Position numbers and translations under genes: made by a program. Of a stretch of 32,000 nt of DNA, positions 1-20,807 are shown one piece after another (position 1 is the first letter of the stretch; each line of letters opens with the position of its first letter). The DNA is from Promethearchaeota archaeon. Its GTDB lineage: Archaea > Asgardarchaeota > Hermodarchaeia > Hermodarchaeales > Hermodarchaeaceae. A model generated the notes under the pieces. That model did not search any database. It saw nothing but the letters and a program-made list of their open reading frames with translations, and was not told the origin of the DNA. The DNA lies in the NCBI GenBank assembly GCA_048938295.1, contig JBHLMI010000010.1:30001-62000 (forward strand). The letters are read 5' to 3'.

Positions 1-405
1 TATGATACTAATCAGAATCCTTTCAAGATTGTCCCTTGGGATTCGCCTCATAGCGTCGCTGAAGGATTATGTGATCCTTTTCCCTGGGATGGTGATCTTG
101 CTCTTAAAGCAGTGCGAGATTCGAAAGGTTCTGCCATAGCGGTTGAAGATGACACGATTCTTCACGCACAAGAATTGCTCGCAAAGTATGAAGGGATTTT
201 TGCAGAGCCTTCTGGGGTTACTGGACTCGCAGGTCTACTTGTTCAACTTGAATCAGGTGTCCAGGATCCCTCAGAATGCATTCTAATTGAAGCAACCGGT
301 GGTGGATTAAAAGACCAAGATGTAGTCATTCAACGAATTGAAATACCACCAGTCATTGACCCGGATCTCAACGAGCTTCGTCGAGCGATGGGTCTTGAAG
401 TGTAG
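1..405 (+). CDS. Threonine synthase-like fold-type II PLP enzyme, 3' part (truncated by window edge)
   Basis: Frame is open from base 1 (YDTNQNPF...SVAEGL...ALKAVRDSKGSAIAVED...EGIFAEPSGVTGLAGL...TGGGLKD). This matches the ThrC C-terminal pattern (EGIFxEP, TGxGLK). Ends TAG at 403-405. Confidence 0.72.
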   Translation, partial: YDTNQNPFKIVPWDSPHSVAEGLCDPFPWDGDLALKAVRDSKGSAIAVEDDTILHAQELLAKYEGIFAEPSGVTGLAGLLVQLESGVQDPSECILIEATGGGLKDQDVVIQRIEIPPVIDPDLNELRRAMGLEV

Positions 406-3093: not shown

Positions 3094-3185
3094 AATGGAA
3101 TCCCTTCTCGATAGCGTCTTCTCGAAAGCTTCAAAAGGTTTTGCCACCACCGCATCCACAGAAGTAGAACCCGAGGTTGTGGAAG

Positions 3186-4205
3186 ATGGATTTACGCGGC
3201 AGAGATATGATTACCATCCAAGAGTGGACGCGAGAAGAACTCGAAGCCGTTCTCGAATTTTCAAAAGAGCTGAAGAAGAAGACGAAGGCTGGAAAATCTC
3301 CTCACCTTTTGTCTGATAAGACCTTTTTTATGTTATTCTACAATACCAGCACGCGAACACGTGCGAGTTTTGAAGCCGCACTAACAGAACTTGGTGGGCA
3401 CGCTCAATTCCTTGAACCTGGTGCTATGCGTCTAGGTGAAGGTGAGAGTGTCAAAGACACTGCAAATACATTGGCTCGATACGGTCATGCCATCGGTATC
3501 CGTATCCTTGAAAAAGCAGTCGGCTATGTATATGGACGAGGAAACCAGGTATTACGTGAGTATGCCAAGTGGTCATCCATCCCTATCATCAATATGGCCG
3601 ATGACAAGTTTCATCCGTGCCAATCCCTTACTGACCTCATGACGGTACAGGAGAATTTTTCAAAAATTCAGGGCAAGAAATTCGTTTTCTCATGGGCATA
3701 TAGTCGCCATTCCCGTTCCTGGTGTAGTGTGCAGAGTGCAATACTGACCGCGACCCGGTTTGGAATGGATGTAACCCTTGCGCATCCTCCTGGCTTTGAA
3801 TTAGATCCCGAGGTTATGGACTGGTGCCATCAAAATGCCAATGAATCAAATGGTGGTTTTTCCATTACCAATGATATCAAGGAGGCCTATTCAGGGGCCC
3901 ATGTTGTCTATCCCCGATCATGGATGAGTGCCGAGTGCTCAGCGGTGGGCATTGATAAATGGGGTGAAGACCGCGAAGCCAAACTCCACGAGAAATATCG
4001 TGATTGGATCTGTAATTCTGAACTCATGGAACTGGCTAGCAAGGATGCAATCTATATGCATTGTCTCCCGGTCTTCCGAGGTGAAGAGGCGACAGATGAA
4101 GTCGTTGATAGCCCCCAAAGTGTCATCTTCGATCAAGCAGAGAACCGACTGCATCTACAGAAAGGACTGCTTTCACTCGTAATGAGTGATAAGAACCTGC
4201 TTTAA
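3186..4205 (+). CDS. Non-canonical transcarbamylase (AOTCase/YgeW-like clade), paralog 1
   Basis: Carbamoyl-phosphate motifs STRTR, HPCQ, HCLP and AENRLH. Acceptor region KKFVFSWAYS; no OTCase DxxxSMG. ATG 3186 with GAGGT RBS at 3173-3177. Confidence 0.9.
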   Translation: MDLRGRDMITIQEWTREELEAVLEFSKELKKKTKAGKSPHLLSDKTFFMLFYNTSTRTRASFEAALTELGGHAQFLEPGAMRLGEGESVKDTANTLARYGHAIGIRILEKAVGYVYGRGNQVLREYAKWSSIPIINMADDKFHPCQSLTDLMTVQENFSKIQGKKFVFSWAYSRHSRSWCSVQSAILTATRFGMDVTLAHPPGFELDPEVMDWCHQNANESNGGFSITNDIKEAYSGAHVVYPRSWMSAECSAVGIDKWGEDREAKLHEKYRDWICNSELMELASKDAIYMHCLPVFRGEEATDEVVDSPQSVIFDQAENRLHLQKGLLSLVMSDKNLL

Positions 4206-4214
4206 AAGCTTGAA

Positions 4215-5282
4215 TTATCGGGTTTTGGGTTCACCCATAATTGCCGCCATAATGGCCTTTTGCGCGTGAAGTCGATTTTCAGCTTCATCAAAGGCGATAC
4301 TCCAATTTCCATCGAGTACTTCATCAGCTACCTCGAATCCACGGTCGGCTGGTAAACAATGCATGTATTTGATATCCTTTGCACCAAGTTCCATCTTCTC
4401 AGGTGTAGTTATCCAATCTTTATTGGCGTCGAAAAGCTTCTGCGCCCCCTCCCAATCTTCTACAGGAGCTATAGGGGGAATATAATGCTTGCTTGTCCAG
4501 CATTTTGGATACACGTAATGTGCACCAGCAAAGGCTGCTTCCATGTCATTAGTGACCTCGAAGGAGCCGCCGTATTCTGCTACGTTCTTTTCACACATCT
4601 CAAGGATTTTGGGGTCGAGTTCGAAACCCTTCGGGTGTGCAAGGACAGTATCCATTCCCCATTTCGTTCCCATTAGAATTCCACTTTGGGGTACTGCAAG
4701 GGGTTTTTGCGTACTTGGGCTGTAAGCCCAACTCATAACGAACTTCTTGCCTTGAACTGTGCGTGAATGCTCTTGAATAGCCTGCATGTCGGCCATGGCT
4801 TGGCACGGATGGTAGACATCATCTTCCATGTTGATGATCGGAACCTCGGACCACTTGGCAAATTCTCGGAGGATGCGATGACCACGACCATAAATCCACT
4901 TTGCATGAGACCCGTATATGCGAATGGCGATCGCGTCACCCATACGGGCAAGCACTCGTGCCACATCCGAGATTCGCTCACTTGAATAGGCTTCTTCATC
5001 ATCTGGCAAAGCGGGACGATAGACATCCTGCGGTGAGAGGAAGTGGGCGTGGCCCCCCATTTGGGTCATACCCGCCTCAAAGGAGTTTCGCGTACGCAGG
5101 GATCGATTAAAGAATATCATGAACAGGGTTTGCCTGAGCAGATAGTCGTGTGGTTTTCGCGCTTTTTGAAGCTTTTTAATTTCAATTGCTGCGTCGATGA
5201 GCGTTTGCAGTTCTTCTTGGCTCCATTCTTGGATGGTCAACCAGTCACGACCATGATACTTTCCAACAATATCTGCACCCAT
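4215..5282 (-). CDS. Non-canonical transcarbamylase (YgeW/ArgF'-like), paralog 2
   Basis: SLRTR, HPCQ, HCLPAD and EAENRLH motifs. Loop SWAYSPSTQKPLAVPQS closely resembles E. coli YgeW TWAYSPSYGKPLSVPQG (recalled). GGTGA RBS. Confidence 0.9.
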   Translation of the reverse strand: MGADIVGKYHGRDWLTIQEWSQEELQTLIDAAIEIKKLQKARKPHDYLLRQTLFMIFFNRSLRTRNSFEAGMTQMGGHAHFLSPQDVYRPALPDDEEAYSSERISDVARVLARMGDAIAIRIYGSHAKWIYGRGHRILREFAKWSEVPIINMEDDVYHPCQAMADMQAIQEHSRTVQGKKFVMSWAYSPSTQKPLAVPQSGILMGTKWGMDTVLAHPKGFELDPKILEMCEKNVAEYGGSFEVTNDMEAAFAGAHYVYPKCWTSKHYIPPIAPVEDWEGAQKLFDANKDWITTPEKMELGAKDIKYMHCLPADRGFEVADEVLDGNWSIAFDEAENRLHAQKAIMAAIMGEPKTR

Positions 5283-5325
5283 TTCAGAGTCACCTTACTT
5301 AACTGCGAATAAAATCGAATGCCCT

Positions 5326-6717
5326 TTAATCTCTTTGCCATCGACTTTGAATCTGCACGCCTGCTCGTTCAAGCAGTTGTTGTCCTCGTTCTCTAGCATT
5401 TTCAATGACCTTCTCTTCATCCAAGGTCATGAGTTTCCCTTCATGCACCAAGATTTGCCCGTTCACAATAGTGGTATGAACATTGAAGCCATTGGCAGCA
5501 TAGATAATGTTACTGACAGGATTGTAGGTGGGTGCAAGGTTCAGTTGGGTGGTGTCAATAAGCACTAAATCTGCCTTCTTACCAACCTCGATGCTTCCAA
5601 TGTCCTTTTCTAGCCCAAGGGCTTTTGCGCCATTAATGGTCGCCATTTCCAGCACTGTTTCTGCAGGCATCGTCAAGGGTTTTAGGGTTCGGGCTTTGTG
5701 GATTATAGCTGCAAGAAACATTTCCCGAAACATATCATAGGCATTATTACTTGGTCCACCATCACAACCTAAACAGACGTTGATTCCCGCTTCTAGCATT
5801 TCAGGAATAAGGGCAATGCCCGACGCTAGCTTGGCATTACTTGCAGGACAATGGCACATATGAGTTCCCGTCTCAACGTAAATCGGAAACTCCTCCGGAG
5901 TAATCCATACCCCATGAACCAAAACAACATTCTTTCCCATCATCCCCACATCCCGCGCAAACTCAGCTGGGGATTGGTTGAATTGCGATTTAGTGTACTC
6001 AACGTCCTCTTTCACTTCACCAAGATGCATGGTAATACCCATGTGGCGTTGCCGGGCTAGCTCTGCAACTCGGCGATATAATTCAGGACTCACAGCACCG
6101 GGAGTCCGCGCTCCCCACCAAATGAAAACACGCCCATCAGCTGCTCCCTGCCATTTATTATGCATGGACAAGGTTTCTGCGATGCATTCCTCAGGATCTT
6201 CAATCATCCCTTCATACATTATGGCTTCTTCATCTGCGTAACCCGTCCAATCCATGAAGAGCTTTGACAAACACCCGCGAATTCCAGTTCGTTCGACGAC
6301 CTGAGCGATTCCGTTCATTCCGTACCGTTTATGGATCATGCTTTCAAGAAAACTCGTCGTGCCAGATTTGAGCATCTCAGCAATGCACAACTCGGCACTG
6401 ACTTTCCCATCTTCGGGTGTGAAGTTCCCTTGCAACACCCAAACATAGTCTCGAAGCCAGGGAATAAGATCAACATCGTCTGCAGTCCCACGAATCAGTG
6501 CCTGTGCCAGATGTACGTGACAGTCAATGAGGCCTGGAATGATAATTTTCGCTTTTCCTGAAATTCGTGTTTCAGCACTGTATTGCTGTTTGATTTCATG
6601 GGATTTTCCAACAGCAATGATACGCTGATCTTCTATAACTATGGCTCCATCAGTAAGAATCCGGCGTTGGGCGTCCATTGTGATAATGGTTGCTTCGTCA
6701 ATAATCAAATCCGCCAT
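5326..6717 (-). CDS. Amidohydrolase-superfamily deaminase (MtaD/DadD/AtzA-like), substrate uncertain
   Basis: PGLIDCHVH (HxH), HLGE (HxxE), VHGVW, HCPASNAKLASG, GCDG and GSIEVGKKADLV. ATG 6717 with GGTG RBS. Confidence 0.88.
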   Translation of the reverse strand: MADLIIDEATIITMDAQRRILTDGAIVIEDQRIIAVGKSHEIKQQYSAETRISGKAKIIIPGLIDCHVHLAQALIRGTADDVDLIPWLRDYVWVLQGNFTPEDGKVSAELCIAEMLKSGTTSFLESMIHKRYGMNGIAQVVERTGIRGCLSKLFMDWTGYADEEAIMYEGMIEDPEECIAETLSMHNKWQGAADGRVFIWWGARTPGAVSPELYRRVAELARQRHMGITMHLGEVKEDVEYTKSQFNQSPAEFARDVGMMGKNVVLVHGVWITPEEFPIYVETGTHMCHCPASNAKLASGIALIPEMLEAGINVCLGCDGGPSNNAYDMFREMFLAAIIHKARTLKPLTMPAETVLEMATINGAKALGLEKDIGSIEVGKKADLVLIDTTQLNLAPTYNPVSNIIYAANGFNVHTTIVNGQILVHEGKLMTLDEEKVIENARERGQQLLERAGVQIQSRWQRD

Positions 6718-6820
6718 CGGAATCAGCACCGCTTTAATCTTTGATTCTTCTTAAGGATTGGACTTTGCAGTTAATAAAGCCACCAGCAGGTTTTTGAATT
6801 TTGTAGAGAAAATTCGGGCT

Positions 6821-7108
6821 ATGCATGTTGTCGTACGGACAATTGGACCCTATACGGAACAATTCGGCTTTCAGCAACTTACCGTGCACTTCAAGGGACG
6901 GACCGTGCATGATCTTTTAAACCAGCTCTGCGAGGAACGGGGTACTAAATTCTGCAACACCGTCTTTACCGAAGAAGGCCAATTACGTCGCTATATCAAG
7001 GTTCTTATCAATGGTCGCGGGCTTCATGTTCTGGAGGGGCTAGATACACCACTGACAGATGGAGATGTTGTGGCCTTATTTCCACCTGTAGCAGGTGGCG
7101 CCTATTAA
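6821..7108 (+). CDS. MoaD/ThiS (SAMP-like) ubiquitin-fold sulfur carrier with C-terminal GG-AY extension
   Basis: VLINGR...L..LTDGDVVALFPPVAGG followed by AY-stop. Start set at ATG 6821. Confidence 0.85.
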   Translation: MHVVVRTIGPYTEQFGFQQLTVHFKGRTVHDLLNQLCEERGTKFCNTVFTEEGQLRRYIKVLINGRGLHVLEGLDTPLTDGDVVALFPPVAGGAY

Positions 7109-8436
7109 CTTTTGATACCAAGTTTTTCCCACAAGGTCGGCACGACGCCCTCAAGAGCCTTTTCAACAACTTCAGATTTTACCGACACAACCTGATGGTT
7201 TTCAACTACTTGCTTCCCGTTCACGAAAACATGCTCAACATTATTTGCAGTACAGCCATAGACGATATACCCGTATACTCCATCTGGCAAAATCGGGGTA
7301 ACCCGGGGATTGGGGTGTAGCATAACTAAATCCGCTAGTTTTCCAGGTTCAATGGATCCTAATCTGTCTCCAAGGCCATAGGCTTGGGCCCCATTGATAG
7401 TTGCCATCTCTATCACCTGTTGTGGAGTTGTAACACGTGTATCAAGGTGGTGTACTTTATGGATGAGATAGGCGGTGCGGATATTCTCGATGGTATCGAA
7501 GATGAACCCATCATTTCCTAGACACACTGGAATTCCCAGCTCGTACATCTCCTTCACGGGGCTGACTCCGACAGCATTGTTCATATTACTCATGGGATTA
7601 TGAGCGACCTTTGCCCCGCTAGCCTTGATTAGCTTCAATTCATCTTGGTTCACGTGTACGCAATGAGCAAGAACCACGTCGGGTCCGAGTACTCCTAGAT
7701 CGAAGAGCCGTTCGACGGTTCGTTTATCATACCGTTCGATATTGTGGTAGACGTCAATGAGCCCTTCACTTGTATGTATGGTAAGAGGTGCAGAGAGTCT
7801 GTCGGCTTGTTCTCGTGTTTTCTGTATTAACTCGTCACTAAGGGTAAAGGACGCGTGTAAACTGTACATTCCCCAAAGTAGGTCATTTGGAGTTTTTTGG
7901 AGTTTTTTGAGAAAGCGAATATTTTCCTTAAGTCCTCGTTCTCCTTCTTCTTTCGAGTTGCGTTCGGTTGCTTCAAATGCTAGAATTCCTCGCATTCCCG
8001 CTTGGGTGACGCCTTTGGCTATCGTATCTAGTACATTTTCAATGGAACCAGGCCCAGAATATGTGTCGGCAAAACAGGTCGTTCCGCCGCGAATAAACTC
8101 GTAACAGGACGCAAGGGCACTTGCGTAGGCGTCCTCATTGACGAATGCCGAATCCACCTTCCACCAAATTCGATCGAGAATCTGAAGAAAATCAGTTGTC
8201 GGTTTAATATCCAGTGGGGCGCCACGGAGCATGATACCGTATAAGTGGGTATGCCCACAAATGAATCCAGGCAGGACCATCCGACCTGTTCCATCAACCA
8301 CAAGGTCAGCTGATTCTTTAATTCTAGTATCAATTGCGGCAATCTTCGAACCATCGATAAGAAGATCTGAGTTCTTCAGAACTCGGCGTTGGGCGTCCAT
8401 TGTGACAATCATTGCGTTTTTAATTAATACACGCAT
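7105..8436 (-). CDS. ssnA: SsnA-family amidohydrolase
   Basis: PGFICGHTHLY, IWWKVDSA, AFEATERN, ENIRF, HASFTLSD, HTSE and SNMNNAVG match recalled E. coli SsnA motifs (LWWRLDRA, CFETTDRN, ENIRF, HAPFTVPD, SNMNNHVG). ATG 8436 with GGTG RBS; the stop overlaps the moaD stop (TTAA 7105-7108). Confidence 0.82.
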   Translation of the reverse strand: MRVLIKNAMIVTMDAQRRVLKNSDLLIDGSKIAAIDTRIKESADLVVDGTGRMVLPGFICGHTHLYGIMLRGAPLDIKPTTDFLQILDRIWWKVDSAFVNEDAYASALASCYEFIRGGTTCFADTYSGPGSIENVLDTIAKGVTQAGMRGILAFEATERNSKEEGERGLKENIRFLKKLQKTPNDLLWGMYSLHASFTLSDELIQKTREQADRLSAPLTIHTSEGLIDVYHNIERYDKRTVERLFDLGVLGPDVVLAHCVHVNQDELKLIKASGAKVAHNPMSNMNNAVGVSPVKEMYELGIPVCLGNDGFIFDTIENIRTAYLIHKVHHLDTRVTTPQQVIEMATINGAQAYGLGDRLGSIEPGKLADLVMLHPNPRVTPILPDGVYGYIVYGCTANNVEHVFVNGKQVVENHQVVSVKSEVVEKALEGVVPTLWEKLGIKS

Positions 8437-8483
8437 CAGAAATCGCACCACGCATGTTATTGTAGATGAATATGATAATCGAG

Positions 8484-8496
8484 TAATCCTTTAAGG
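8484..8496. promoter_or_regulatory. Candidate BRE/TATA core between divergent ssnA and Fe-S/AOR operon (near-palindromic CCTTTAAGG)
   Basis: AATCCTTTAAGG lies 35 nt before ATG 8531 and about 52 nt from the opposite-strand ATG 8436. Confidence 0.45.
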
Positions 8497-8530
8497 CTTC
8501 GATACACCTTTTTCCTGAGCGTGTATTCTC

Positions 8531-9037
8531 ATGGACAAATCAGCTCATAAGGTTCTCGTCGTTGACCCGGAAAAGTGTACAGGCTGTGGAATCTGTACCC
8601 TCGTTTGTTCTTTTCGTCATAACCAGGAATATAATCCCTCCAGGGCGCTTCTAACAGTTATCCGTAATGAAAAAAGCGGAATCAACATCCCAGTTATCTG
8701 TCAGCATTGCGAGACTCCCTTATGTATGGAAAGTTGCCCTGCTGATGCCATCTATCGCGACGCTGAAACCAATGCGGTTTGTATCAACCAAGAAAATTGT
8801 ATTGGTTGCCACCAATGCCTAATTGCCTGTCCGTTTGGTGGGATTCATATTGACGTATCTGATGGTCGCACCGTCAAATGTGATTTGTGTGAAGGGTATG
8901 CGATGTGTGCACAATTTTGCCCCAGAGAGGCTTTGTTGTATTTGGAACCGAGTGAATTGACTGATCGGCTTCGGCAAAAGGGTGTCAAGAAAGCCGCTGA
9001 ATATCTCCAGATTATAACAGGAGGCGCGAAAAAATGA
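8531..9037 (+). CDS. 4x[4Fe-4S] electron-transfer subunit (AOR partner, DmsB/HycB-like)
   Basis: Four Cys clusters (CTGCGICTLVC; CQHCETPLCMESC; CIGCHQCLIAC; CDLC...CAQFC). ATGA overlap with the AOR gene. Confidence 0.92.
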   Translation: MDKSAHKVLVVDPEKCTGCGICTLVCSFRHNQEYNPSRALLTVIRNEKSGINIPVICQHCETPLCMESCPADAIYRDAETNAVCINQENCIGCHQCLIACPFGGIHIDVSDGRTVKCDLCEGYAMCAQFCPREALLYLEPSELTDRLRQKGVKKAAEYLQIITGGAKK

Positions 9038-10971
9038 GTAAGGATAATGCTTACTATGGTTACGCTGGACGAATTGCAGAAGTTGATTTGACTGAATCCA
9101 AAGTCAAAATTACACCCATGGACCGTGATTTTGCCAGAAATTATCTCGGTGGAACCGGGTTTGCCTCGCGCATATTATGGGATCGTGTCAAGCCAGGTTC
9201 AGATCCACTTGATCCGCAGAATCCGATTATCTTTGGGGTGGGTCCGGTTACAGGTGCCTTTTTCTCTCCTTCAGGACGGTATATGGTTGCCTTCAAATCT
9301 CCCTTAACAGGAGTGTGGGGTGAAGCTCATTGTGGAGGGCATTGGGGACCTCAGCTCAAATATGCTGGATTTGACATGCTAATCATTCAAGGCAAAGCGC
9401 CTAAGCCAGTTTACCTTATGGCACACGACAAAACCGTGACCATCCATGATGCCACTCATCTGTGGACCCAAGACACTACTGAAACCACGGACCAAATCAA
9501 ACAGGAACATGGAGACAATGACATCGAGGTTGCCTCCATTGGAATAGCGGGTGAGAATCTGGTCCGATACGCGGCAATTATTGGCTCTTATTATCGAGCT
9601 GCCGGTCGTGCAGGGGGTGGAGCTGTGATGGGAAGCAAGAATCTCAAAGCCATTGCAGCGCGAGGTCTTGGAGGCGTACTGGTTGCCCAACATGGGAAGT
9701 TCCTCGCTGCAGCACGAAAAGCCTTTGAACAGACCACGACTGGAAAATGGGGAGAAATGAACGAAGAATCCCTCGGCAAGTACGGGACAACTAACCTTGT
9801 AAATGCAATTGGAGAGATTGGTCGACTCCCCACGAAGAATCATACAACCGGCATATTTCCAGAGGCAGATGCCATCGGACCAGAAATTATACGACAGAAG
9901 TATCGAACAAGCCGGGAAGCCTGCTTTGGGTGTGCGCTCCAGTGCAAATATACATCTCAAGTGAAATCAGGGCCTTACCAAGTGAAGACTGGAGGACCAG
10001 AGTATGAAACTCTCATGGCCTTTGGCAGCAATTGCCTTAACAGTAACGTGGAATCGATTCTGTATGCAAACCAGCTCTGCAATCGCTACGGTTTAGACAC
10101 AATAAGCACAGGCTGCACCATCGCCTTCTTAATGGAAGCAGCTGAACACAACCTCGTTACATCAAAAGATGCTGACGGACTCGACCTCTCATGGGGAAAC
10201 GATGAAACAATCATTGTACTCATTGAAAAAATTGCGCACCGCCAAGGCATAGGTAACCTACTCGCTGAAGGCTCCATGCGAGCTGCCCAAAAAATAGGAA
10301 AAGGTGCAGAACAGTTCGCGATTCATGTTAAAGGAATGGAAGCCTCGGGCCAAGATCCCCGACCTCAACAAAGTGTAGGCTTAACCTACGCCACCAATGT
10401 TCGTGGTGCTGATCACCTTCGAAGTCTAAGCTGCTATGAAGAACTCGGTTTCCCTGATGTCGCCATAGATCGATTCGGTGAGGAACACGCCTCCGAAGTG
10501 ATGGATCTACATAGCACCACCTACAAGGGCCACCTTATCAAAGACCAAGAAGACCTTTATGTGCTCGTTGATAGCGTAATTCTCTGTAAATACGGCTCTA
10601 TGTGGCCACCTATCTACTATTTCGATATCGTTGCGCAAATGCTTGCTCCCCTTACCGGCTTCCAAGAGTTTGGGGACATCAAGGAACTACGCAAAATCAC
10701 TGAACGAATCAGTAATCTTCGACGATGCTTCAATGTCCGGGAAGGCATAACTCGTAAGAACGAGCAACTCCATCCACGGTTTACAGAAGAACCGATGCCA
10801 GAAGGTCCAGCCAAAGGACAAGTCTGTGACCTCGAACCCATGCTCAATGAATACTATGAAGTCCGCAACTGGACAAAAGATGGTCTTCCAAAACGCTCCG
10901 AGCTAATCCGTTTAGGCCTAGACGATGTAGCCGATGAACTCGCAAAAATGGGTAAGTTGGTGGAAGAATAA
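9034..10971 (+). CDS. Tungsten-containing aldehyde:ferredoxin oxidoreductase-family protein (AOR-1)
   Basis: SPLTG, AGEN, GRAGGGAVMGSKNLKAI, CFGCALQC, GPEYET, GLDTIS, RGADH and distal Cys (DSVILC). 645 aa. Confidence 0.93.
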   Translation: MSKDNAYYGYAGRIAEVDLTESKVKITPMDRDFARNYLGGTGFASRILWDRVKPGSDPLDPQNPIIFGVGPVTGAFFSPSGRYMVAFKSPLTGVWGEAHCGGHWGPQLKYAGFDMLIIQGKAPKPVYLMAHDKTVTIHDATHLWTQDTTETTDQIKQEHGDNDIEVASIGIAGENLVRYAAIIGSYYRAAGRAGGGAVMGSKNLKAIAARGLGGVLVAQHGKFLAAARKAFEQTTTGKWGEMNEESLGKYGTTNLVNAIGEIGRLPTKNHTTGIFPEADAIGPEIIRQKYRTSREACFGCALQCKYTSQVKSGPYQVKTGGPEYETLMAFGSNCLNSNVESILYANQLCNRYGLDTISTGCTIAFLMEAAEHNLVTSKDADGLDLSWGNDETIIVLIEKIAHRQGIGNLLAEGSMRAAQKIGKGAEQFAIHVKGMEASGQDPRPQQSVGLTYATNVRGADHLRSLSCYEELGFPDVAIDRFGEEHASEVMDLHSTTYKGHLIKDQEDLYVLVDSVILCKYGSMWPPIYYFDIVAQMLAPLTGFQEFGDIKELRKITERISNLRRCFNVREGITRKNEQLHPRFTEEPMPEGPAKGQVCDLEPMLNEYYEVRNWTKDGLPKRSELIRLGLDDVADELAKMGKLVEE

Positions 10972-12155
10972 TGACAGTCAAATTAGATGTTGAAATTGCT
11001 GGTATTCCCCTCCGTAATCCCGTTCTAACCGCTGCAGGGCCAACGAGCCGAGATGCTGAAACCCTGTTAGAAGCAGCGCGTGGCGGAGTGGGAGGTTTGG
11101 TGGCTAAAACTATCAGCGTCAAACCTGCCAAAGTTCCCCGTCCGAATATGCAAACCCTTGACCGTGGTAAGAGTCAATGGCTTCTGGCAACAGCCATGCA
11201 ACACCATATTGTCCACTTGGAACGGATCAGTGTTCGAGGAGCATATGGATTACTTAACCATGAATTATGGAGCGATAAGCCCTACGAAAAGTGGCTCAAA
11301 CATGAATATCCGAAGGCAAAGGAAGCAGGTCTGTCTCTCATCGCATCCATGGGTTATACTCCCGAGGAACTAGCAAAACTCGCACCCTTAGTGGAGAAAG
11401 CGGGAGTTGATGGTATTGAGTTCAGCACCCATTACATCGAATCTGATCCTAAAGTCTTCAACGAAGTCGCGAAGACATTGAAAGAAGCTGTCGATATTCC
11501 CGTCTTTGCGAAAATGAGCCCCCATGTCAAAGACCTGACAGTCTTCGTGAAAGCAGTGGAAAAACATGTCGACGGATTTGTAGCTATCAATACTCTTGGG
11601 CCCTGCCTCCACATCGACATTGAAACGGGCAAACCACTCCTCGGTGGGCCAGGAGGTGTTGGATGGCTCTCAGGACCTGCCATCAAACCCCTGGCAGTTC
11701 GTTGTGTTGCTGATATTGCCCGTGGCACTTCAAAACCTGTCGTTGGTGTTGGAGGAGTTAGCACCGGTGCCGATGCCATTGAGTTCGTCATGTGCGGTGC
11801 ATCAGCTGTCCAAGTATGTACTGCTGCTATCCTCGAAGGTAACTCAGTGTATGGGCGTATCGCTACTGAAATGGCGAACTACCTCAAATCTCATGGGCAT
11901 GATTCGCCACTAGATGTCCGTGGCATCTCCCTCAAACACCTCCCCACTGATACCCTCCGCATCGAAAGTCTCCCACCAACTGTCGACGAAGAAGCCTGCT
12001 CGGGTTGTGGGCTATGCAACAAATCCTGTATCTACTCCGCCATTGCCGTCAACCCAGACACATCCAAAGCACAAGTGGATACAAATCTCTGTTATGGCTG
12101 CGGGGTCTGCGTCAGCATTTGTCCACACCGCGCACTATCCTTCCAGACTAATTAA
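10971..12155 (+). CDS. Dihydropyrimidine dehydrogenase PreA/DHODH-like FMN protein with C-terminal 2x[4Fe-4S]
   Basis: TAAGP, VAKT, LNHELWS, FAKMSP, AINT, LSGPAIKP, GVGGV and VQVCTA motifs. C-terminal CSGCGLCNKSC and CYGCGVCVSIC. TAATG overlap with AOR-1. Confidence 0.85.
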   Translation: MTVKLDVEIAGIPLRNPVLTAAGPTSRDAETLLEAARGGVGGLVAKTISVKPAKVPRPNMQTLDRGKSQWLLATAMQHHIVHLERISVRGAYGLLNHELWSDKPYEKWLKHEYPKAKEAGLSLIASMGYTPEELAKLAPLVEKAGVDGIEFSTHYIESDPKVFNEVAKTLKEAVDIPVFAKMSPHVKDLTVFVKAVEKHVDGFVAINTLGPCLHIDIETGKPLLGGPGGVGWLSGPAIKPLAVRCVADIARGTSKPVVGVGGVSTGADAIEFVMCGASAVQVCTAAILEGNSVYGRIATEMANYLKSHGHDSPLDVRGISLKHLPTDTLRIESLPPTVDEEACSGCGLCNKSCIYSAIAVNPDTSKAQVDTNLCYGCGVCVSICPHRALSFQTN

Positions 12156-12173
12156 TAGGATGAACTCAAATCC

Positions 12174-12461
12174 ATGACTAAAAAACCTCAAGTTACCGTT
12201 CGCATGTTCACAAGCCTCCGTGCCCTCACCGGAGTCAGAGAAATCCAACTAGAAGCCAAAGATGTCCAAGAAGTCATAGATATACTAGGTAACAAGTTTG
12301 GGAACAAATTTAACAAAATGGTCCTCGAAGCTGATGGATCACTCAAGTCCTACTTCCATGTTCTTGTCAATGGACGCCACGTCAGACTACAACAAGGATT
12401 AGCAACACCACTTACTGAAGGAGACGTTGTTGCAATTTTCCCGCCAATAGGTGGCGGGTAA
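12174..12461 (+). CDS. moaD: MoaD/ThiS (SAMP1-like) sulfur carrier
   Basis: VLVNGR...LTEGDVVAIFPPIGGG-stop, with a free C-terminal GG. Last gene of the AOR-1 operon. Confidence 0.88.
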   Translation: MTKKPQVTVRMFTSLRALTGVREIQLEAKDVQEVIDILGNKFGNKFNKMVLEADGSLKSYFHVLVNGRHVRLQQGLATPLTEGDVVAIFPPIGGG

Positions 12462-12477
12462 AAACAAGGATGGGGTT

Positions 12478-13251
12478 TTATCCCTTCTTTTTCGCTGCAC
12501 GCATGGCTTTAATGGTTTCAGCTAATTGCTTGCCTTTATCATCCAGGATTGTGCGTTCAATGATGGTTCCTTGGACGATGATGTCTGCTCCTGCAGCAGC
12601 TGCTGCAGCTGCTTGCTCGGGTGTATAAATGCCTCCACCAACTGCAAGGGGGATATCAATAGTGTGGGACACGAGATTAATCATAGGAATGGGGACTACA
12701 TTTTCCGCTCCAGAACCGGCTTCTAAGTAAACAAATTGGAAACCCATGTATTGGGCTGCGAGTGAATAGCTGACAGTGATTTCTGGTTTGTCTTTGGGAA
12801 GGAGCCTTGCATCTCCGATGAATCCTGCGGTGCCACCGGGTTCGACGATTAGGTAACCCATGGAGATGGGTTCTAGGTTGTAGCTTTTAATATGTCGGGC
12901 AGCCAAGGTTTGAGCCTCGATTATCCAATAGGTATTGCGTGAGTTTAGAAGGCTCATGAAGAAGACGGCGTCTGCAGAGCGTGAAAGCCCAGAGACATTA
13001 CCAGGGAATAGAATGACGGGGATGTCAACCTGTTTTTTTATTGCCTGGACAGATTCATCGATGACTCCGAATGCTGTTGACCCTCCAACCATGATGCCGT
13101 TGCTTCCTGCTTTTTCAGCGAGGCTTGCAATTTGCCCGGCTGTATCAGCAGATTGTTTGATGGGGTCAGGGTCGATGAGGGTAAGGTGTGCGATGTGTTC
13201 ATCTTTGATGACTTTGAGAATATGTTTCCATGTGGGACCTGGATTTGGCAT
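12478..13251 (-). CDS. Geranylgeranylglyceryl phosphate synthase (GGGPS, PcrB family)
   Basis: LIDPD, IMVGGS, LFPG, FMSLLNS, MGYLIVEPG, YLEAGSGA and VGGGI motifs. Confidence 0.95.
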   Translation of the reverse strand: MPNPGPTWKHILKVIKDEHIAHLTLIDPDPIKQSADTAGQIASLAEKAGSNGIMVGGSTAFGVIDESVQAIKKQVDIPVILFPGNVSGLSRSADAVFFMSLLNSRNTYWIIEAQTLAARHIKSYNLEPISMGYLIVEPGGTAGFIGDARLLPKDKPEITVSYSLAAQYMGFQFVYLEAGSGAENVVPIPMINLVSHTIDIPLAVGGGIYTPEQAAAAAAAGADIIVQGTIIERTILDDKGKQLAETIKAMRAAKKKG

Positions 13252-13298
13252 TTTTTTACCCCGGTTTCATGCATGCAGCTTACTTACTTTAAAGCTTG

Positions 13299-13976
13299 CT
13301 ACCGTTGAGCGAGTATCCTTGTTACTCCAGGCGAAACGTGTGCCGTGTTTTTGTCCCAGTCTACAACGACTAATTTCCGGAGTTCAAACCACCGTAGATA
13401 GTTTCGGACTTTGGATTCGGTGATGTGTAAGGTTTGAGCAAGGTCTGAAAAGCTCGTTTTCCCCGTTGCGCCGAAAGCTCGTAGGATGGGGCTCCATTCA
13501 TAAACAATGAGCATGGCCATGGCGGGGAGGAGTTTATCCAAGTTGTAATCAGTGGTGTTGCTAATTGGAATTACAGGAACGCCGACCATGAAACTCAAGT
13601 CATGGCGGATTCTTTCTGGTGTTCGAGCTGCACGAAGATCTTGTTTATTTGCGGCAACAATACAAGGAACATTAGGGAGGAGATCACTGATCTCTGTCCA
13701 AATATAGCGTGCTTCAGCATCTCCATCGGGTTTGCTCGCGTCGACAACAAAGAGGATTCCGTCAGCTCCCTCGGAAATAATTCGTCGTAACACCTTGAAT
13801 CGGGCTAGCCCAGGGGTTCCAAATAGCCGAATTGGTATTCCAAAGACTTCAGCGACACCGTGGTCAAGACCAACAGTTGTACCATTAGCTTGAATATTAA
13901 TTATGTTTCCCTTGGCTAGGTGCTGAATGAGTGTGCTTTTTCCTGAGAGGTGTGGACCTGTTACAAGCACTTTCAT
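13299..13976 (-). CDS. MglA/CvnD-type small GTPase fused to a C-terminal winged-helix domain
   Basis: G1 GPHLSGKST, G2 TTVGLD, G3 FGTPG, G4 NKQD. C-terminal SFSDLAQTLHITESKVRNYLRWFELRKLV has an HTH/wHTH pattern. Confidence 0.82.
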   Translation of the reverse strand: MKVLVTGPHLSGKSTLIQHLAKGNIINIQANGTTVGLDHGVAEVFGIPIRLFGTPGLARFKVLRRIISEGADGILFVVDASKPDGDAEARYIWTEISDLLPNVPCIVAANKQDLRAARTPERIRHDLSFMVGVPVIPISNTTDYNLDKLLPAMAMLIVYEWSPILRAFGATGKTSFSDLAQTLHITESKVRNYLRWFELRKLVVVDWDKNTAHVSPGVTRILAQR

Positions 13977-14057
13977 GTTATCAAAATCCTCTAGGTTCGT
14001 CTTTTGTAGAAGGAGGAGGGCATATACTAAGATAGCCCCGCGTATCTCATTCTGCAG

Positions 14058-14075
14058 AGGTTTGAATTTAAACCT
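14058..14075 (-). promoter_or_regulatory. Candidate TATA box (TTTAAA) within imperfect palindrome AGGTTTAAATTCAAACCT upstream of the GTPase gene
   Basis: Sequence seen directly; about 85-95 nt upstream of ATG 13976. Confidence 0.35.
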
Positions 14076-14102
14076 TGCTTATGAGAGGGGTTTTATGACC
14101 AG

Positions 14103-16025
14103 TTATTCGGGTAATTCTACACCTGCTTTTGTCAGGTCTATAATAACATCGTTCAAGCTTAATCGATGTAACGTTCGCTTAGTCGGAAGCCCATCTTCAA
14201 CTCGCCAGCCACGTACCTCGTAGTATTCGTCGAGCATTTGTTCCAGTTCAACGACTTGGCCCTTCGATGGTCCTTCTGGGGCAGGAGTCTTGGTTAGGCG
14301 GCTTGGGAGTGAATCATCTTTCCGGCGAATTCCTTCTCGGACATTGAAACCGCGATTGAGATTCACAATTCGTTCACCAATTGTTCGCAACTGTTTCTCG
14401 GTGATTGAGTGACCTACAGTAACGTCAAAGGCTTTGACAATGTCTTCATAAAAAAGAACTGGTGGAATCAATGTACCGTATTTGCAGACGCCCAATGATT
14501 CAACAACCGCACAGAAATCCTCGTTTTCTTTTACCATGATACCTTTATATTTGGGATCAAGGCGGTCGCCGATTTCTGGGAGATACTCAGTTCCATAACG
14601 GATTCCAATTTCCTCATCGAATCCCACTTCATCAAGAACAGGGAATGCATAAAGGTGGTCAGCCCCCCGTGCTGCAGTGGCGGTGGCCAGTCCCATGGAT
14701 TTTTGGGCTCGGGATTCCTGCCCTGCGATTTCTTGCTTCTTGCAGTGCATAACGAACTTCTCAGTCCCACGTCCAATGCGTTGGGCTGCTCGATAACTCC
14801 CCTCAGCTAAGATGTCGCCAAATCCTTCACGCTTAGCAATCATGTGGATGAGTGTGATGATGGACTCATGGTTGCCCCAGCTTAGATCTATCCCATCGGT
14901 GTCTTTTGCGGTGATGAGGCCTTCATCCCAGGCCTCCATCGCCCAGCTAATCGTTGCCCCTGTAGAGATAGTATCTAAACCGTACAAGTTGCTGAGGTGG
15001 TGGCCATAAAGGATTGATTCGAGATTATCGTTTCCACATCGGCTTCCCATAGCTGACTGGGTTTCGTACTCCGGAGCGCCACCACAATAGGCATAAGGTC
15101 CAGTTTTGACGCACGTATAGCGACCACACCGTTGCAGACAGGCAAAATCCGCTCGGGGTTTCACTAAATAGTTCTTTTTAATCGCTTCCCCGCTGATTTT
15201 CTGATATTCTGCGAATACTCCAGAGCGCATATTATAACTCGGTAGTCGCCCGATTTCTTGCATTAATTCTACTAGATTGGTCGTGCCATACATCGCCCGA
15301 CTGGCGGTAAATGGGCTTGCTAGCATTTTCTGGTGCAGTTCTTCTATCACTTCGAGGTAGCGATCTGGCTTGGCAATGGGAATATCCTGTCCACCTCGAA
15401 CCGCCACAGCCTTAAGGTGCTTGCTCCCTGCTACGGCTCCAATACCTGACCGTGCGGCAGCCCGGTCATAATCGTTTATAATGGCCGCAAACCGGACAAG
15501 GTTCTCTCCTGCTTGGCCAATGCAAGAGACACGAAGATCTCGGTCATTATGCATTTCTTTTATCATGTCTTCGGTTTCGGCGGTGTTGCGGCCCCATAGT
15601 TTCTTTGCATCGAGTAATCGAGCAGTTCCATTATCAATAAACAGATACCTCGGGGTCTCTGATCGACCTGTGACAGTAATAGTGTCATACCCTGCAAATT
15701 TCAGTTCCGGTCCCCAATGTCCGGCAGAATGGGCTTCACCAAAGATGCCTGTGAGTGGTGATTTCGCAGCAACCACATACCGAGAAGCTTGAGGCCACAG
15801 GGTTCCTGTGAAGGGTCCGGTTGCCCAAAGAAGAATGTTTTCTGGACTCAGTGGGTCTGTAGTGGGTCCTACCCGATCATACATGATTCGTGAAGCAAAT
15901 CCTTGGCCCCCAAGATACATGAGAGCAAATTCTTTGTCGATTGGAACCGGTTTACATGTTCCCTTTGTCATATCTACGTGTAGATGCTGTCCTGCATACC
16001 CACCGAGTTTCCCTTTCTTCACCAT
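14103..16025 (-). CDS. Tungsten-containing AOR-family oxidoreductase (AOR-2)
   Basis: SPLTG, AGENLV, GSKHLKAV, APEYET, GLDTIS, RGADH and ESLGVC. The Fe-S motif reads DFACLQRC. GAGGTG RBS overlaps the upstream stop. Confidence 0.92.
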   Translation of the reverse strand: MVKKGKLGGYAGQHLHVDMTKGTCKPVPIDKEFALMYLGGQGFASRIMYDRVGPTTDPLSPENILLWATGPFTGTLWPQASRYVVAAKSPLTGIFGEAHSAGHWGPELKFAGYDTITVTGRSETPRYLFIDNGTARLLDAKKLWGRNTAETEDMIKEMHNDRDLRVSCIGQAGENLVRFAAIINDYDRAAARSGIGAVAGSKHLKAVAVRGGQDIPIAKPDRYLEVIEELHQKMLASPFTASRAMYGTTNLVELMQEIGRLPSYNMRSGVFAEYQKISGEAIKKNYLVKPRADFACLQRCGRYTCVKTGPYAYCGGAPEYETQSAMGSRCGNDNLESILYGHHLSNLYGLDTISTGATISWAMEAWDEGLITAKDTDGIDLSWGNHESIITLIHMIAKREGFGDILAEGSYRAAQRIGRGTEKFVMHCKKQEIAGQESRAQKSMGLATATAARGADHLYAFPVLDEVGFDEEIGIRYGTEYLPEIGDRLDPKYKGIMVKENEDFCAVVESLGVCKYGTLIPPVLFYEDIVKAFDVTVGHSITEKQLRTIGERIVNLNRGFNVREGIRRKDDSLPSRLTKTPAPEGPSKGQVVELEQMLDEYYEVRGWRVEDGLPTKRTLHRLSLNDVIIDLTKAGVELPE

Positions 16026-16031
16026 TATAAT

Positions 16032-16523
16032 TCACCTCTTTTCTGATTCCTCTTCCACTCGAAGTTCGTCAAGGAGATTTCCACATTCGTGCTGAATCAC
16101 TTTCTGCTGCTTCAAAGCTGCCAATTGTTCATCGGTGAGAATCTGTAAGGTATCAACTGGGCAATATCTCGTGCAAAAGCCACATGCGATACATTTGATG
16201 GCTTTTTGCGTGTCGGGATGTAAGAAGATGGCTCCAAATGGGCATGCTTCGACACAAGCCCCACACCCACGGCATTTCTTCGAATCCACAATGACAATAC
16301 CTTTCCGGTTCTTCTGCAGGGCTTCTTCAGGACACGCTTCGATGCACCAAGCTTGATCGCAATTTCGACACGCTACAACAACATCAAGTCCTGGATTGAC
16401 TCGGCGTACCCGGTTCCGCGACTTCTTCGGATTGATGGTCTTTTCCCAATGTAAACTACATACTGCTTCACAAATCCGACAACCAACACACACGGTAGGG
16501 TCCGCATAGAGAAATTGTCGCAT
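16032..16523 (-). CDS. 4x[4Fe-4S] electron-transfer subunit (AOR-2 partner)
   Basis: CVGCRICEAVC, CRNCDQAWCIEAC, CRGCGACVEAC and CIACGFCTRYC. GAGGTG RBS. Confidence 0.92.
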   Translation of the reverse strand: MRQFLYADPTVCVGCRICEAVCSLHWEKTINPKKSRNRVRRVNPGLDVVVACRNCDQAWCIEACPEEALQKNRKGIVIVDSKKCRGCGACVEACPFGAIFLHPDTQKAIKCIACGFCTRYCPVDTLQILTDEQLAALKQQKVIQHECGNLLDELRVEEESEKR

Positions 16524-20763: not shown

Positions 20764-20807
20764 AACTCCCCTTTACTGACAAGCACCATTCTAAGGTGGC
20801 GAATATC

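Follow-up and report, generated by a model that had tools for sequence, protein, structure and literature searches.

A candidate purine-type reductive ring-catabolic locus with integrated aldehyde oxidoreductase modules in a Hermodarchaeal genome

The closest described counterpart of the locus reported here is the reductive urate pathway, which was solved in two studies in 2025 (PMC12507026; bioRxiv 10.1101/2025.04.24.650524). In this pathway 2,8-dioxopurine is made from urate by the dehydroxylase XdhD/DOPDH. The second ring is opened by HyuA, the two ureido groups are taken off by YgeW, acting with the carbamate kinase YqeA, and by YgeY, and pyruvate is the product of YgeX (PMC12507026; bioRxiv 10.1101/2025.04.24.650524). 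The ring is reduced by YgfK or, in C. difficile, by UacX, a PydA-like FMN/Fe-S protein without an FAD domain, and this step could be detected only in combination with the opening of the ring by SsnA (PMC12507026). The bacterial genes are clustered, in E. coli as xdhD-ygfM, ygfK, ssnA, hyuA, ygeW, yqeA, ygeY and ygeX, with a C. difficile variant carrying UacX and UacY (PMC12507026; bioRxiv 10.1101/2025.04.24.650524). The stretch analyzed here, referred to as the window, comprises 32,000 nucleotides of a Promethearchaeota archaeon of the Hermodarchaeaceae (assembly GCA_048938295.1, 2.52 Mb, 91.6% complete; contig JBHLMI010000010.1, C61:30001-62000). In it, a UacX-type ring reductase and an SsnA-like amidohydrolase are found with two carbamoyltransferases and enzymes of the aldehyde oxidoreductase (AOR) family.

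With respect to the AOR family, only five of 92 tungsten oxidoreductase clades have a known physiological role (PMC13328260), and the same 2026 classification mentions no purine, pyrimidine, amidohydrolase or dihydroorotate context for AORs (PMC13328260). The Hermodarchaeota paper reads the AORs of this lineage as generic aldehyde oxidizers. In our literature search no paper was found which joins tungsten or AORs with dioxopurine or xanthine, or which describes an AOR-linked purine island.

The gene content and conserved linkage presented below indicate that the window probably encodes a purine-type reductive ring-catabolic system with integrated AOR modules. Our preferred reading, to which we assign a probability of about 0.35-0.4, is that this is a Hermod/Thor-archaeal form of the reductive purine (2,8-dioxopurine-type) pathway with AORs as the missing hydroxylase/dehydroxylase; pathway substrates, AOR role and electron path are what we infer from these data. 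What is new here is a lineage in whose searched assemblies no xanthine dehydrogenase (XDH) was found, AOR modules which abut the reductase, an AOR clade with Gln at position 427, and twin transcarbamylases where YgeY is missing. Genes were called from the open reading frame (ORF) listing together with Pfam and NCBIfam scans of the window proteins, and those of concern are as follows.

1..405, forward strand: 3' end of the gene for a ThrC-like pyridoxal phosphate (PLP) enzyme; the whole gene (420 aa, C61:29143-30390) starts 858 nt before the window
3177..4205, forward strand: carbamoyltransferase TC1 (OTCace_N and OTCace)
4215..5282, reverse strand: carbamoyltransferase TC2 (OTCace_N and OTCace)
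5326..6729, reverse strand: deaminase-type (cog0402-like) amidohydrolase (Amidohydro_1)
6758..7108, forward strand: MoaD/SAMP1-like small sulfur carrier (ThiS family)
7105..8451, reverse strand: SsnA-like amidohydrolase (best NCBIfam model SsnA NF005540)
8531..9037, forward strand: polyferredoxin FeS1, WorS-like (Fer4 families)
9034..10971, forward strand: AOR1 (AFOR_N and AFOR_C)
10971..12155, forward strand: PreA/dihydroorotate dehydrogenase-like reductase, UacX-type (DHO_dh, PF01180, and C-terminal 2x[4Fe-4S], Fer4)
12174..12461, forward strand: MoaD-like protein MoaD2 (ThiS family), last gene of the FeS1-AOR1-reductase operon
12478..13251, reverse strand: geranylgeranylglyceryl phosphate synthase (GGGPS), from Pfam/NCBIfam
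13299..13976, reverse strand: small GTPase with a C-terminal extension, from Pfam/NCBIfam
14103..16025, reverse strand: AOR2 (AFOR_N and AFOR_C)
16032..16523, reverse strand: polyferredoxin FeS2, partner of AOR2 (Fer4 families)

All of the genes named in the preliminary description of this DNA were recovered in their places by the Pfam and NCBIfam scans. The start of TC1 was placed at 3186 and is at 3177 in the ORF listed here. FeS1, AOR1, the reductase and MoaD2 are closely packed in one operon, in which the end of FeS1 overlaps the AOR1 start by 4 nt, the reductase start overlaps the AOR1 stop by 1 nt, and an 18-nt gap precedes MoaD2. The SsnA-like gene is divergent from this operon with 80 bp between them. 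The deaminase-type amidohydrolase and TC2 are co-directional and 43 nt apart, TC1 and TC2 are convergent and 9 nt apart, and 2.8 kb separate TC1 from the ThrC-like PLP gene upstream of it.

The nearest public relative of the reductase (90% identity) is labelled Candidatus Hermodarchaeota. Its active-site loop is E-F-S-T-H-Y (nt 11418-11435), and on alignment with pig dihydropyrimidine dehydrogenase the catalytic Cys loop is gone and the replacing segment is 12 residues shorter. The loop is kept in 16 reductase orthologues, in which S152, H154 and Y155 are invariant. An E-x-S-x-H-Y loop is common to the reductases of canonical clusters from Thermosipho, Acidaminobacter and Heimdallarchaeaceae, which all read E-[VI]-S-T-H-Y; the UacX-type class as used here is set by motif match to these reductases of same-architecture clusters rather than to the C. 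difficile UacX sequence itself. The canonical-cluster reductase of Heimdallarchaeaceae has close bacterial relatives at 55-60% identity, and the neighbourhoods of these relatives are textbook uricolytic clusters: in Acidaminobacter XdhC, MocA, XDH, Fer2, FAD, M20, OTCase-type, two amidohydrolases, reductase, PLP enzyme, FAD, Fer2 and XDH, and in Thermosipho M20, OTCase-type, two amidohydrolases and reductase. To survey prokaryotes more broadly, one genome per species was scanned with an alignment of UacX-type proteins as query. Of the 80 loci obtained, 33 were of the full-length E-x-S-x-H-Y type and 47 were ordinary N-x-S-C-P PyrD beside pyrB/pyrC-like genes. SsnA was present no more than 10 kb away in 27 of the 33 UacX-type loci, mostly directly upstream. 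The loop and these SsnA-linked loci together place the reductase, by prediction, as a UacX-type FMN/2x[4Fe-4S] protein of the SsnA-coupled class and not as a dihydropyrimidine dehydrogenase. The earlier proposal that a PreA-like protein stands in for YgfK was borne out to the extent that a UacX-type reductase lies beside SsnA; it is not new, because the UacX variant has been published for C. difficile (PMC12507026). The E-x-S-x-H-Y loop offers a simple sequence marker which parts UacX-type purine-ring reductases from PyrD, PreA and PydA, all of which are now annotated alike.

Identity as a PreA/PydA dihydropyrimidine dehydrogenase was considered and rejected, as the reductase carries E-F-S-T-H-Y instead of an N-x-S-C-P loop and scores 191 bits against the PreA model NF006183 (cut-off 335). 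No GltD-like gene (PreT, the FAD-NAD(P)H partner) adjoins the reductase, whose neighbours are FeS1 and AOR1; GltD-like genes adjoin other AOR paralogues, on contigs C8 and C33.

Placement in the SsnA-coupled class lowers the alternative already raised in the preliminary description, namely reductive pyrimidine catabolism, in which uracil or thymine would be reduced and opened by dihydropyrimidinase, the transcarbamylases would phosphorolyse N-carbamoyl-beta-alanine and N-carbamoyl-beta-aminoisobutyrate, and the AORs would oxidize malonate or methylmalonate semialdehyde and return the electrons to the reductase. Semialdehyde oxidation of this kind would be typical AOR chemistry and would even out the redox balance, and the genome does hold a dihydropyrimidinase above the curated cut-off as well as an adjacent class-III aminotransferase and aldehyde dehydrogenase pair. 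Against this, the reductase is without the PydA/PreA Cys loop, no aminotransferase is linked to the AOR clusters, and the aminotransferase in the genome is already paired with an aldehyde dehydrogenase. In another Asgard family (f21), moreover, a true PydA-type set occurs, with a PreA-like gene carrying the classical L-E-L-N-V-S-C-P-H loop beside dihydropyrimidinase, aldehyde dehydrogenase and class-III aminotransferase genes. We regard the pyrimidine route as very improbable.

To determine whether the arrangement is conserved, the reductase was searched in 301 genomes of the phylum and 20-kb neighbourhoods were compared. Reductase orthologues (51-62% identity) were present in all 14 genomes of the genus itself, in nearly all of family f6 (labelled Thorarchaeota), and in genomes G029, G025 and G004, and in 18 of the 20 loci from outside the genus the FeS1-AOR1 pair either immediately preceded the reductase or was a few kb from it at most. 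The wider set of FeS1-AOR1-reductase, MoaD, FeS2-AOR2 and deaminase-type amidohydrolase is likewise linked in 18 of these 20. The order in f6 is deaminase-type amidohydrolase, PAS kinase, FeS1, AOR1, reductase, M24 peptidase, PfkB kinase, MoaD, allantoinase/hydantoinase-type amidohydrolase, FeS2 and AOR2. G029 carries SsnA, a further amidohydrolase, the reductase and three FeS/AOR modules on a single strand. G004 has a distant paralogous set, also on a single strand, composed of a Bmp-type binding protein, SsnA (35%), reductase (37%) and AOR (41% identity). Metagenome contigs near the AOR clade carry AOR, reductase, FeS, AOR and a hydantoinase-like gene, another metagenome context has FeS, AOR and amidohydrolase beside a Bmp/nucleoside-type ABC transporter, and further AOR relatives are flanked by deaminase-type amidohydrolases, with others in generic contexts. 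Linkage of parts of the gene set is seen in four or more further Asgard families and also in archaea of other phyla, and the co-location goes beyond chance. TC2, the SsnA-like protein and the reductase also have nearly the same family distribution (genus g1 and families f5, f6 and f17, the first two proteins also f21).

A chance neighbourhood of housekeeping genes, made up of aldehyde-detoxifying AORs with their maturation proteins, a methylthioadenosine (MTA)/5'-deoxyadenosine deaminase and arginine-related transcarbamylases, has to be weighed against this linkage. The genome has nine AOR paralogues and five transcarbamylases, the window genes lie in several transcription units with GGGPS and the GTPase in between, TC2 is just over the cut-off for N-acetylornithine carbamoyltransferase, and parts of the set are dispersed in f6. 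The AOR-reductase-amidohydrolase linkage nevertheless recurs in several Asgard families, Bathyarchaeia, unrelated metagenome contigs and the paralogous set of G004, and the phyletic patterns of reductase, SsnA-like protein and TC2 largely coincide, so that we consider a fortuitous grouping highly unlikely. The compact single arrangement is, however, particular to this genus, because the SsnA and transcarbamylase genes of f6 are on other contigs.

The canonical pathway is itself present among Asgard archaea. In Heimdallarchaeaceae (f4; L096/L097, G026, G074) a cluster was found with XdhA-like, FAD/2Fe-2S, ThrC-like PLP, reductase, SsnA, HyuA, carbamoyltransferase, YgeY, XdhD-like and MocA genes. 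Its YgeY is 60% identical to that of E. coli, its SsnA and that of E. coli are sisters in the tree (support 100/100), and its carbamoyltransferase is near-identical in the tree to that of Acidaminobacter, which suggests transfer from Clostridia. The sequences suggest that the cluster as a whole is a recent bacteria-to-Asgard transfer.

In contrast to this canonical form, the lineage studied here has no XDH-family gene in the assemblies searched. In its own genome (91.6% complete) the XDH Mo-binding domain PF02738 had no match, and E. coli XdhA, XdhD and nucleobase transporters gave no tblastn match. Matches to PF02738 were obtained in none of 18 genomes of its own family, 1 of 76 in f6 (a weak fragment) and 0 of 1 in f17, compared with 27 of 29 in f4, 19 of 21 in f21 and 9 of 11 in f13. 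Among the 33 UacX-type loci, 20 had XDH only, five had AOR with polyferredoxin only, none had both and eight had neither. Three of the last group were checked: Thermogladius has three XDH genes elsewhere, Clostridium UBA701 three XDH genes, and a Hadesarchaea bin three AOR1-3-like genes and one XDH. The bacterial order is SsnA-reductase-XDH, and here SsnA is followed divergently by FeS1-AOR1-reductase; an AOR in the XDH position next to the reductase fits the pattern that would be expected for displacement in place.

AOR1 and AOR2 score 423 and 431 bits to AFOR_C and 262 and 247 bits to AFOR_N, respectively. A third FeS and AOR module lies away from the window (C38:69510-71937), in which AOR3 (C38:69994-71934) has its own polyferredoxin and is orthologous to the cluster-embedded AORs of G029 and G025. 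Among themselves AOR1, AOR2 and AOR3 share 42-48% identity, compared with 30-38% to the remaining six paralogues of the genome, and each has 53-64% identical orthologues in the clusters of G029, f6 and G025. The FeS2-AOR2 pair is kept in f6 and G029, with the 63-64% identical AOR2 orthologues there linked to the reductase. At 50% identity the AOR1 clade falls into one cluster among 1.8 billion proteins, and the next matches lie at 44-46% identity; the best 120 AOR1 matches are all at least 53% identical, and those named are Thorarchaeota or Promethearchaeota. In FeS1 the Cys positions are invariant in a 14-sequence alignment, and the pattern suggests four [4Fe-4S] clusters. The metal in the linked AORs is assumed from the family to be tungsten and not molybdenum.

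Residues are numbered as in the Pyrococcus furiosus enzyme (PfAOR). Tyr427 has been listed with Thr243, Glu313 and His448 as varying very little, above all in aldehyde-oxidizing members (PMC13328260). At this position AOR1 has Gln440 (nt 10351-10353) and AOR2 has Gln436 (nt 14718-14720), and Gln is found in every member of the three linked AOR clades as well as in AORs beside reductase/amidohydrolase genes from Bathyarchaeia, G004 and two metagenome contigs. The other paralogues of the genome and AORs from generic contexts have Tyr, Trp or His. The position of Cys447 is Asp in the linked AORs, which is not unique to the clade. AOR2 has Asp293 (nt 15147-15149) in place of PfAOR Cys288, the first [4Fe-4S] ligand; Asp is also found in the f6 AOR2 orthologue, and the G029 orthologue keeps Cys. 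By this comparison the linked AORs are a distinct superclade with a clade-specific active-site change.

The same enzymes could be read differently, with the purine pathway unchanged and the AORs serving as ordinary aldehyde oxidizers, for example of aldehydes from amino-acid or ribose breakdown, and as an electron-input module for the reductase. Electrons of very low potential would then pass through the polyferredoxin in place of PreT or an FAD domain and drive the unfavourable ring reduction, and entry to the pathway would need no hydroxylase or would use another substrate. This reading is consistent with the nearest proven relatives of AOR1 and AOR2 being aldehyde oxidoreductases in which Glu313 and His448 are kept, with the translational coupling of AOR1 to the reductase, and with the presence, in related AORs on metagenome contigs, of a Pyr_redox_2 subunit in the reductase position, as in AorABC. 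It also agrees with ring reduction being seen only when SsnA-coupled (PMC12507026) and with the Hermodarchaeota literature, which takes these AORs as aldehyde oxidizers. One AOR would suffice for such a function, yet two or three clades with their own polyferredoxins are conserved, and the linked clades, unlike generic AORs, have Gln at the Tyr427 position. The known pathway yields no aldehyde, and how an XDH-less lineage makes 2,8-dioxopurine would be left open. On balance we hold an electron-input role to be rather unlikely, though it is the most serious of the alternatives.

The SsnA-like protein has orthologues in g1, f5, f6 (63 of 76 genomes), f14, f17 and f21, and one member of its clade abuts XDH. 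The SsnA of the canonical Heimdallarchaeaceae cluster scores 367 bits against the SsnA model, about the same as the window protein. The deaminase-type amidohydrolase at 5326-6729 has 5'-deoxyadenosine deaminase as best model (423 bits, cut-off 522), groups with E. coli GuaD in the tree, and its linkage to the AOR-reductase cluster recurs in f6, G025 and G029. A dihydropyrimidinase/HyuA-like gene (C27:702-2381) is on a separate 2.6-kb contig; it scores 501 bits against TIGR02033 (cut-off 393) and is 37.5% identical to E. coli HyuA.

The two window transcarbamylases had been described as YgeW/ArgF'-like. Two OTCace_N/OTCace genes are indeed present, but they score far below the YgeW models (TIGR03316: TC1 159 and TC2 147 bits against 500; NF005538: 172 and 151 against 453) and are nearer to N-acetylornithine and ornithine carbamoyltransferases, with 285.7 (TC1) and 292.6 bits (TC2) against NF003384 (N-acetylornithine carbamoyltransferase, cut-off 288) and N-acetylornithine carbamoyltransferase (AOTCase) and P. 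furiosus ornithine carbamoyltransferase (OTCase) as best structures. In the carbamoyltransferase tree the two window proteins, E. coli YgeW and the canonical-cluster carbamoyltransferases share one clade (support 99/98), apart from the genome's own ornithine carbamoyltransferases (OTCs); as the tree is without references for AOTCase, N-succinylornithine carbamoyltransferase (SOTCase) and putrescine carbamoyltransferase (PTCase), this YgeW-containing clade may also hold those families. TC2 orthologues (55-67% identity) are found in g1, f5, f17, f6 (69 of 76) and f21 (16 of 21), and the TC1/TC2 pair is kept in f6 and f21. Family f21 has TC1 with a carbamate kinase, and also TC2, in a context of SsnA, carbamate kinase and PLP genes and no arg genes. 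A role for TC1 and TC2 in the arginine pathway is disfavoured, there being other OTC/aspartate carbamoyltransferase genes on C57, C49 and C32 and a catabolic context for the pair.

With regard to the step assigned to YgeY, the E. coli query gave only partial matches in the genome (22-28% identity). Among the UacX-type loci, six have two transcarbamylases without an M20 peptidase, none has two transcarbamylases with M20, and 15 have M20 with one transcarbamylase at most. The two-transcarbamylase loci without M20 fit a second transcarbamylase taking over the ureido group of YgeY and giving a second carbamoyl phosphate. Two carbamate kinases were found, neither of them linked to the window: one on C49, and one on C8 which shares 52% identity with YqeA and neighbours a PLP gene of the serine/threonine-dehydratase type.

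E. coli YgeX gave no tblastn match in the genome at 1e-5. The ThrC-like PLP enzyme is 48-49% identical to PLP genes beside SsnA (f21) and beside AOR and TC2 (G025); its identity to the PLP gene in the canonical cluster of Heimdallarchaeaceae is 33%. ThrC-like homologues occupy the YgeX position of the Heimdallarchaeaceae and Acidaminobacter clusters and occur in 13 of 33 UacX-type loci, compared with 3 of 33 for YgeX-like genes. In f21 a ThrC-like PLP gene is next to SsnA, with the XDH genes elsewhere. The ThrC-like enzyme may represent a non-orthologous replacement for diaminopropionate ammonia-lyase. A second PLP gene, on C13, is 24% identical to it. The rest-of-genome search suggested earlier found no xdh and no full ygfK. 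HyuA, YgeY, DpaL and carbamate kinase had been reported as lying outside the window, which holds for the HyuA-like and carbamate kinase genes on other contigs and has to be amended for the candidate terminal PLP enzyme, part of which is inside it (1-405).

The same enzyme families could also process a different N-heterocycle which is neither urate nor 2,8-dioxopurine, for instance a hydantoin-type compound, a pterin, or a purine or nucleoside with modifications. The SsnA-like protein, TC1/TC2 and the AOR clades are all distinct from characterized enzymes, the f6 clusters (L049:11564-13691, 18546-19112) also hold genes for an M24 peptidase, a PfkB-family kinase and an ATC-hydrolase-like protein within the AOR-reductase island or next to it, and Bmp-type nucleoside-binding proteins neighbour related clusters. 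The gene set nonetheless corresponds to the purine pathway at almost every enzyme, and clusters with XDH, YgeY and HyuA have the same reductase motif; a different heterocycle is judged improbable.

In the preferred reading, that of a reductive purine pathway with AORs as hydroxylase/dehydroxylase, the deaminase-type amidohydrolase, a putative nucleobase or nucleoside deaminase, would supply an oxopurine, AOR1, AOR2 and AOR3 with their polyferredoxins would carry out ring hydroxylation and 6-dehydroxylation, the XDH and DOPDH steps of bacteria, and electrons would pass via polyferredoxin to the reductase translationally coupled to AOR1. The UacX-type FMN/Fe-S reductase would dearomatize the ring, the SsnA-like amidohydrolase would open it, and the dihydropyrimidinase/HyuA-like enzyme encoded on the other contig would open the second. 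TC1 and TC2 would phosphorolyse the two ureido groups to carbamoyl phosphate, from which carbamate kinase, encoded elsewhere in the genome, would make ATP, and the ThrC-like PLP enzyme in the YgeX position would release the C3 remnant. In chemical terms, the reduction of an acid to an aldehyde has its aza-analogue in the 6-dehydroxylation of a lactam carbon, and XDH-family enzymes act on both aldehydes and heterocycles. AORs are favoured for these steps because the lineage has no other pterin enzyme for them, because two to three specialized clades are conserved with the cluster, as bacteria too use two enzymes, XDH and DOPDH, and because the AORs stand in the XDH position with an active site differing at one residue listed as conserved. 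In its most specific form, which we put forward tentatively, the AOR1/2/3 superclade would comprise tungsten purine hydroxylases/dehydroxylases, the counterpart of selenium-molybdenum XDH/DOPDH, connected by polyferredoxins to the UacX-type reductase and converting hypoxanthine or xanthine to dihydro-2,8-dioxopurine in an internally redox-balanced complex, with twin carbamoyltransferases harvesting both ureido groups as ATP.

A number of observations weigh against this reading. Concerning the AORs, the nearest structures to AOR1 and AOR2 are aldehyde oxidoreductases (9mqx, 444 bits; 1AOR, 424-430 bits; 8C0Z), both enzymes retain Thr243, Glu313 and His448, and in the literature searched there is no report of heteroaromatic ring hydroxylation by any AOR-family enzyme. 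All five AOR-type loci are archaeal and all 20 XDH-type loci bacterial, so that the exclusivity of XDH and AOR is confounded with phylogeny and related loci are not independent, and G004 and the Hadesarchaea genome hold both types. Concerning the hydrolytic genes, the SsnA-like protein scores 372 bits against its best model NF005540, below the cut-off of 444, is 29% identical to E. coli SsnA, and forms its own clade next to that of E. coli SsnA without being its sister in the small tree. The amidohydrolase at 5326-6729 may be housekeeping, as it is the only candidate MTA/5'-deoxyadenosine deaminase of the genome, and so may the ThrC-like PLP enzyme, which at 354 bits is above the curated threonine synthase cut-off (NF006050, 303). 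In f6 the SsnA and transcarbamylase genes on the other contigs are beside unrelated genes (penicillin amidase, peptide ABC transporter), and the placement of GGGPS and the GTPase, which split the first operon from FeS2-AOR2, is kept solely within the genus. The claims of the preliminary description consequently stand in part. A gene set related to the ssnA/ygeW/ygfK pathway is present and its linkage, when checked in other genomes, was conserved, and the action of AORs on a purine ring is predicted. Likewise, AOR modules are in the place of XDH and no XDH gene was found, but the replacement of XDH by tungsten AORs is tempered by their closest relatives being aldehyde oxidoreductases and by a split which follows that of bacteria and archaea.

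The remaining features of the window and genome are as follows. The MoaD/SAMP1-like protein (6758-7108) scores 64.7 bits against SAMP1 NF041918 (cut-off 60) and 63.1 against moaD_arch (49.5), and its gene is kept in the genus and in G025; the MoaD-like gene at 12174-12461 is kept downstream of the reductase in f6 and G029. The order FeS-AOR-ThiS is also a generic AOR arrangement elsewhere. Other neighbours in the window are a Ras-family GTPase, a longin-like protein and TFIIB, as would suit an Asgard archaeon, and an M24 peptidase is also present at 20796-21800. On C49 there is an arginine deiminase operon (L077:5603-11308) with amino-acid permease, OTC, arginine deiminase, a short PLP protein and carbamate kinase. 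A class-III aminotransferase and an aldehyde dehydrogenase at the end of contig C38 (C38:105452-108094) are 35% and 46% identical to the f21 pair and may act on beta-alanine or gamma-aminobutyrate. In f21 (L113, G119) the PydA-type set is directly beside the SsnA-like gene and near TC2, which makes purine- and pyrimidine-type modules adjacent. Finally, the complete chromosome of Thermogladius sp. 4427co (L123, Desulfurococcales) has two transcarbamylases, carbamate kinase, SsnA and UacX-type reductase together, with three XDH elsewhere, and is a possible experimental model for the twin-transcarbamylase variant.

With this analysis a specific and testable role in purine catabolism can be proposed for the AOR clade. 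Should the AORs act on the ring, the family would gain a reaction type new to it, and a tungsten enzyme would have displaced one of the molybdenum/selenium kind. The data suggest fermentation of purines for ATP by Asgard and other sediment archaea, possibly with carbamoyl phosphate from both ureido groups, which bears on nucleic-acid turnover in anoxic sediments.

When the locus is set against the bacterial urate cluster, the two share a UacX-type reductase without an FAD domain adjoining an SsnA-like amidohydrolase, a carbamoyltransferase and carbamate kinase predicted to give ATP, a hydantoinase-type amidohydrolase and a PLP enzyme, and a canonical copy of the bacterial form exists in another Asgard family, the Heimdallarchaeaceae. 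They differ in that the genome is without the XDH family and has two or three AOR and polyferredoxin modules in its place, in having two carbamoyltransferases and no YgeY-type M20 peptidase, and in having a ThrC-like PLP enzyme for YgeX. The SsnA-like protein and carbamoyltransferases also fall in separate clades and below curated cut-offs, and the set is distributed among several contigs and transcription units.

Compared with AorABC of Aromatoleum aromaticum and the Class II tungsten oxidoreductases WorL and WorS (PMC13328260), the AOR modules are alike in their AOR subunit, four-cluster polyferredoxin and neighbouring MoaD-like gene, in the retention of Thr243, Glu313 and His448, and in having aldehyde oxidoreductases as nearest solved structures. 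The third subunit of AorABC is an FAD/NAD protein, whereas the window has a UacX-type ring reductase in that position. The linked clade further differs in Gln for Tyr427, in the Asp of AOR2 for the first cluster-binding Cys, and in the consistent location of its genes beside cyclic-amide hydrolases.

The reductase resembles PydAc (PMC7332683) and E. coli PreA in its FMN-binding DHO_dh fold, C-terminal 2x[4Fe-4S], lack of an FAD/NAD(P)H domain and predicted supply of electrons from Fe-S carriers, and is unlike them in being without the catalytic Cys loop N-x-S-C-P. PydAc has two ferredoxin domains and the window reductase one, and the latter is linked to SsnA and AOR where PydAc is linked to PydB and PydC. 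TC1 and TC2, lastly, share with the knotted carbamoyltransferases YgeW and AOTCase (3KZC) the OTCase fold and the S-x-R-T-R, H-P-x-Q and H-C-L-P motifs, and differ from both in an altered ornithine-binding D-x-x-x-S-M-G loop and in being conserved as a pair.

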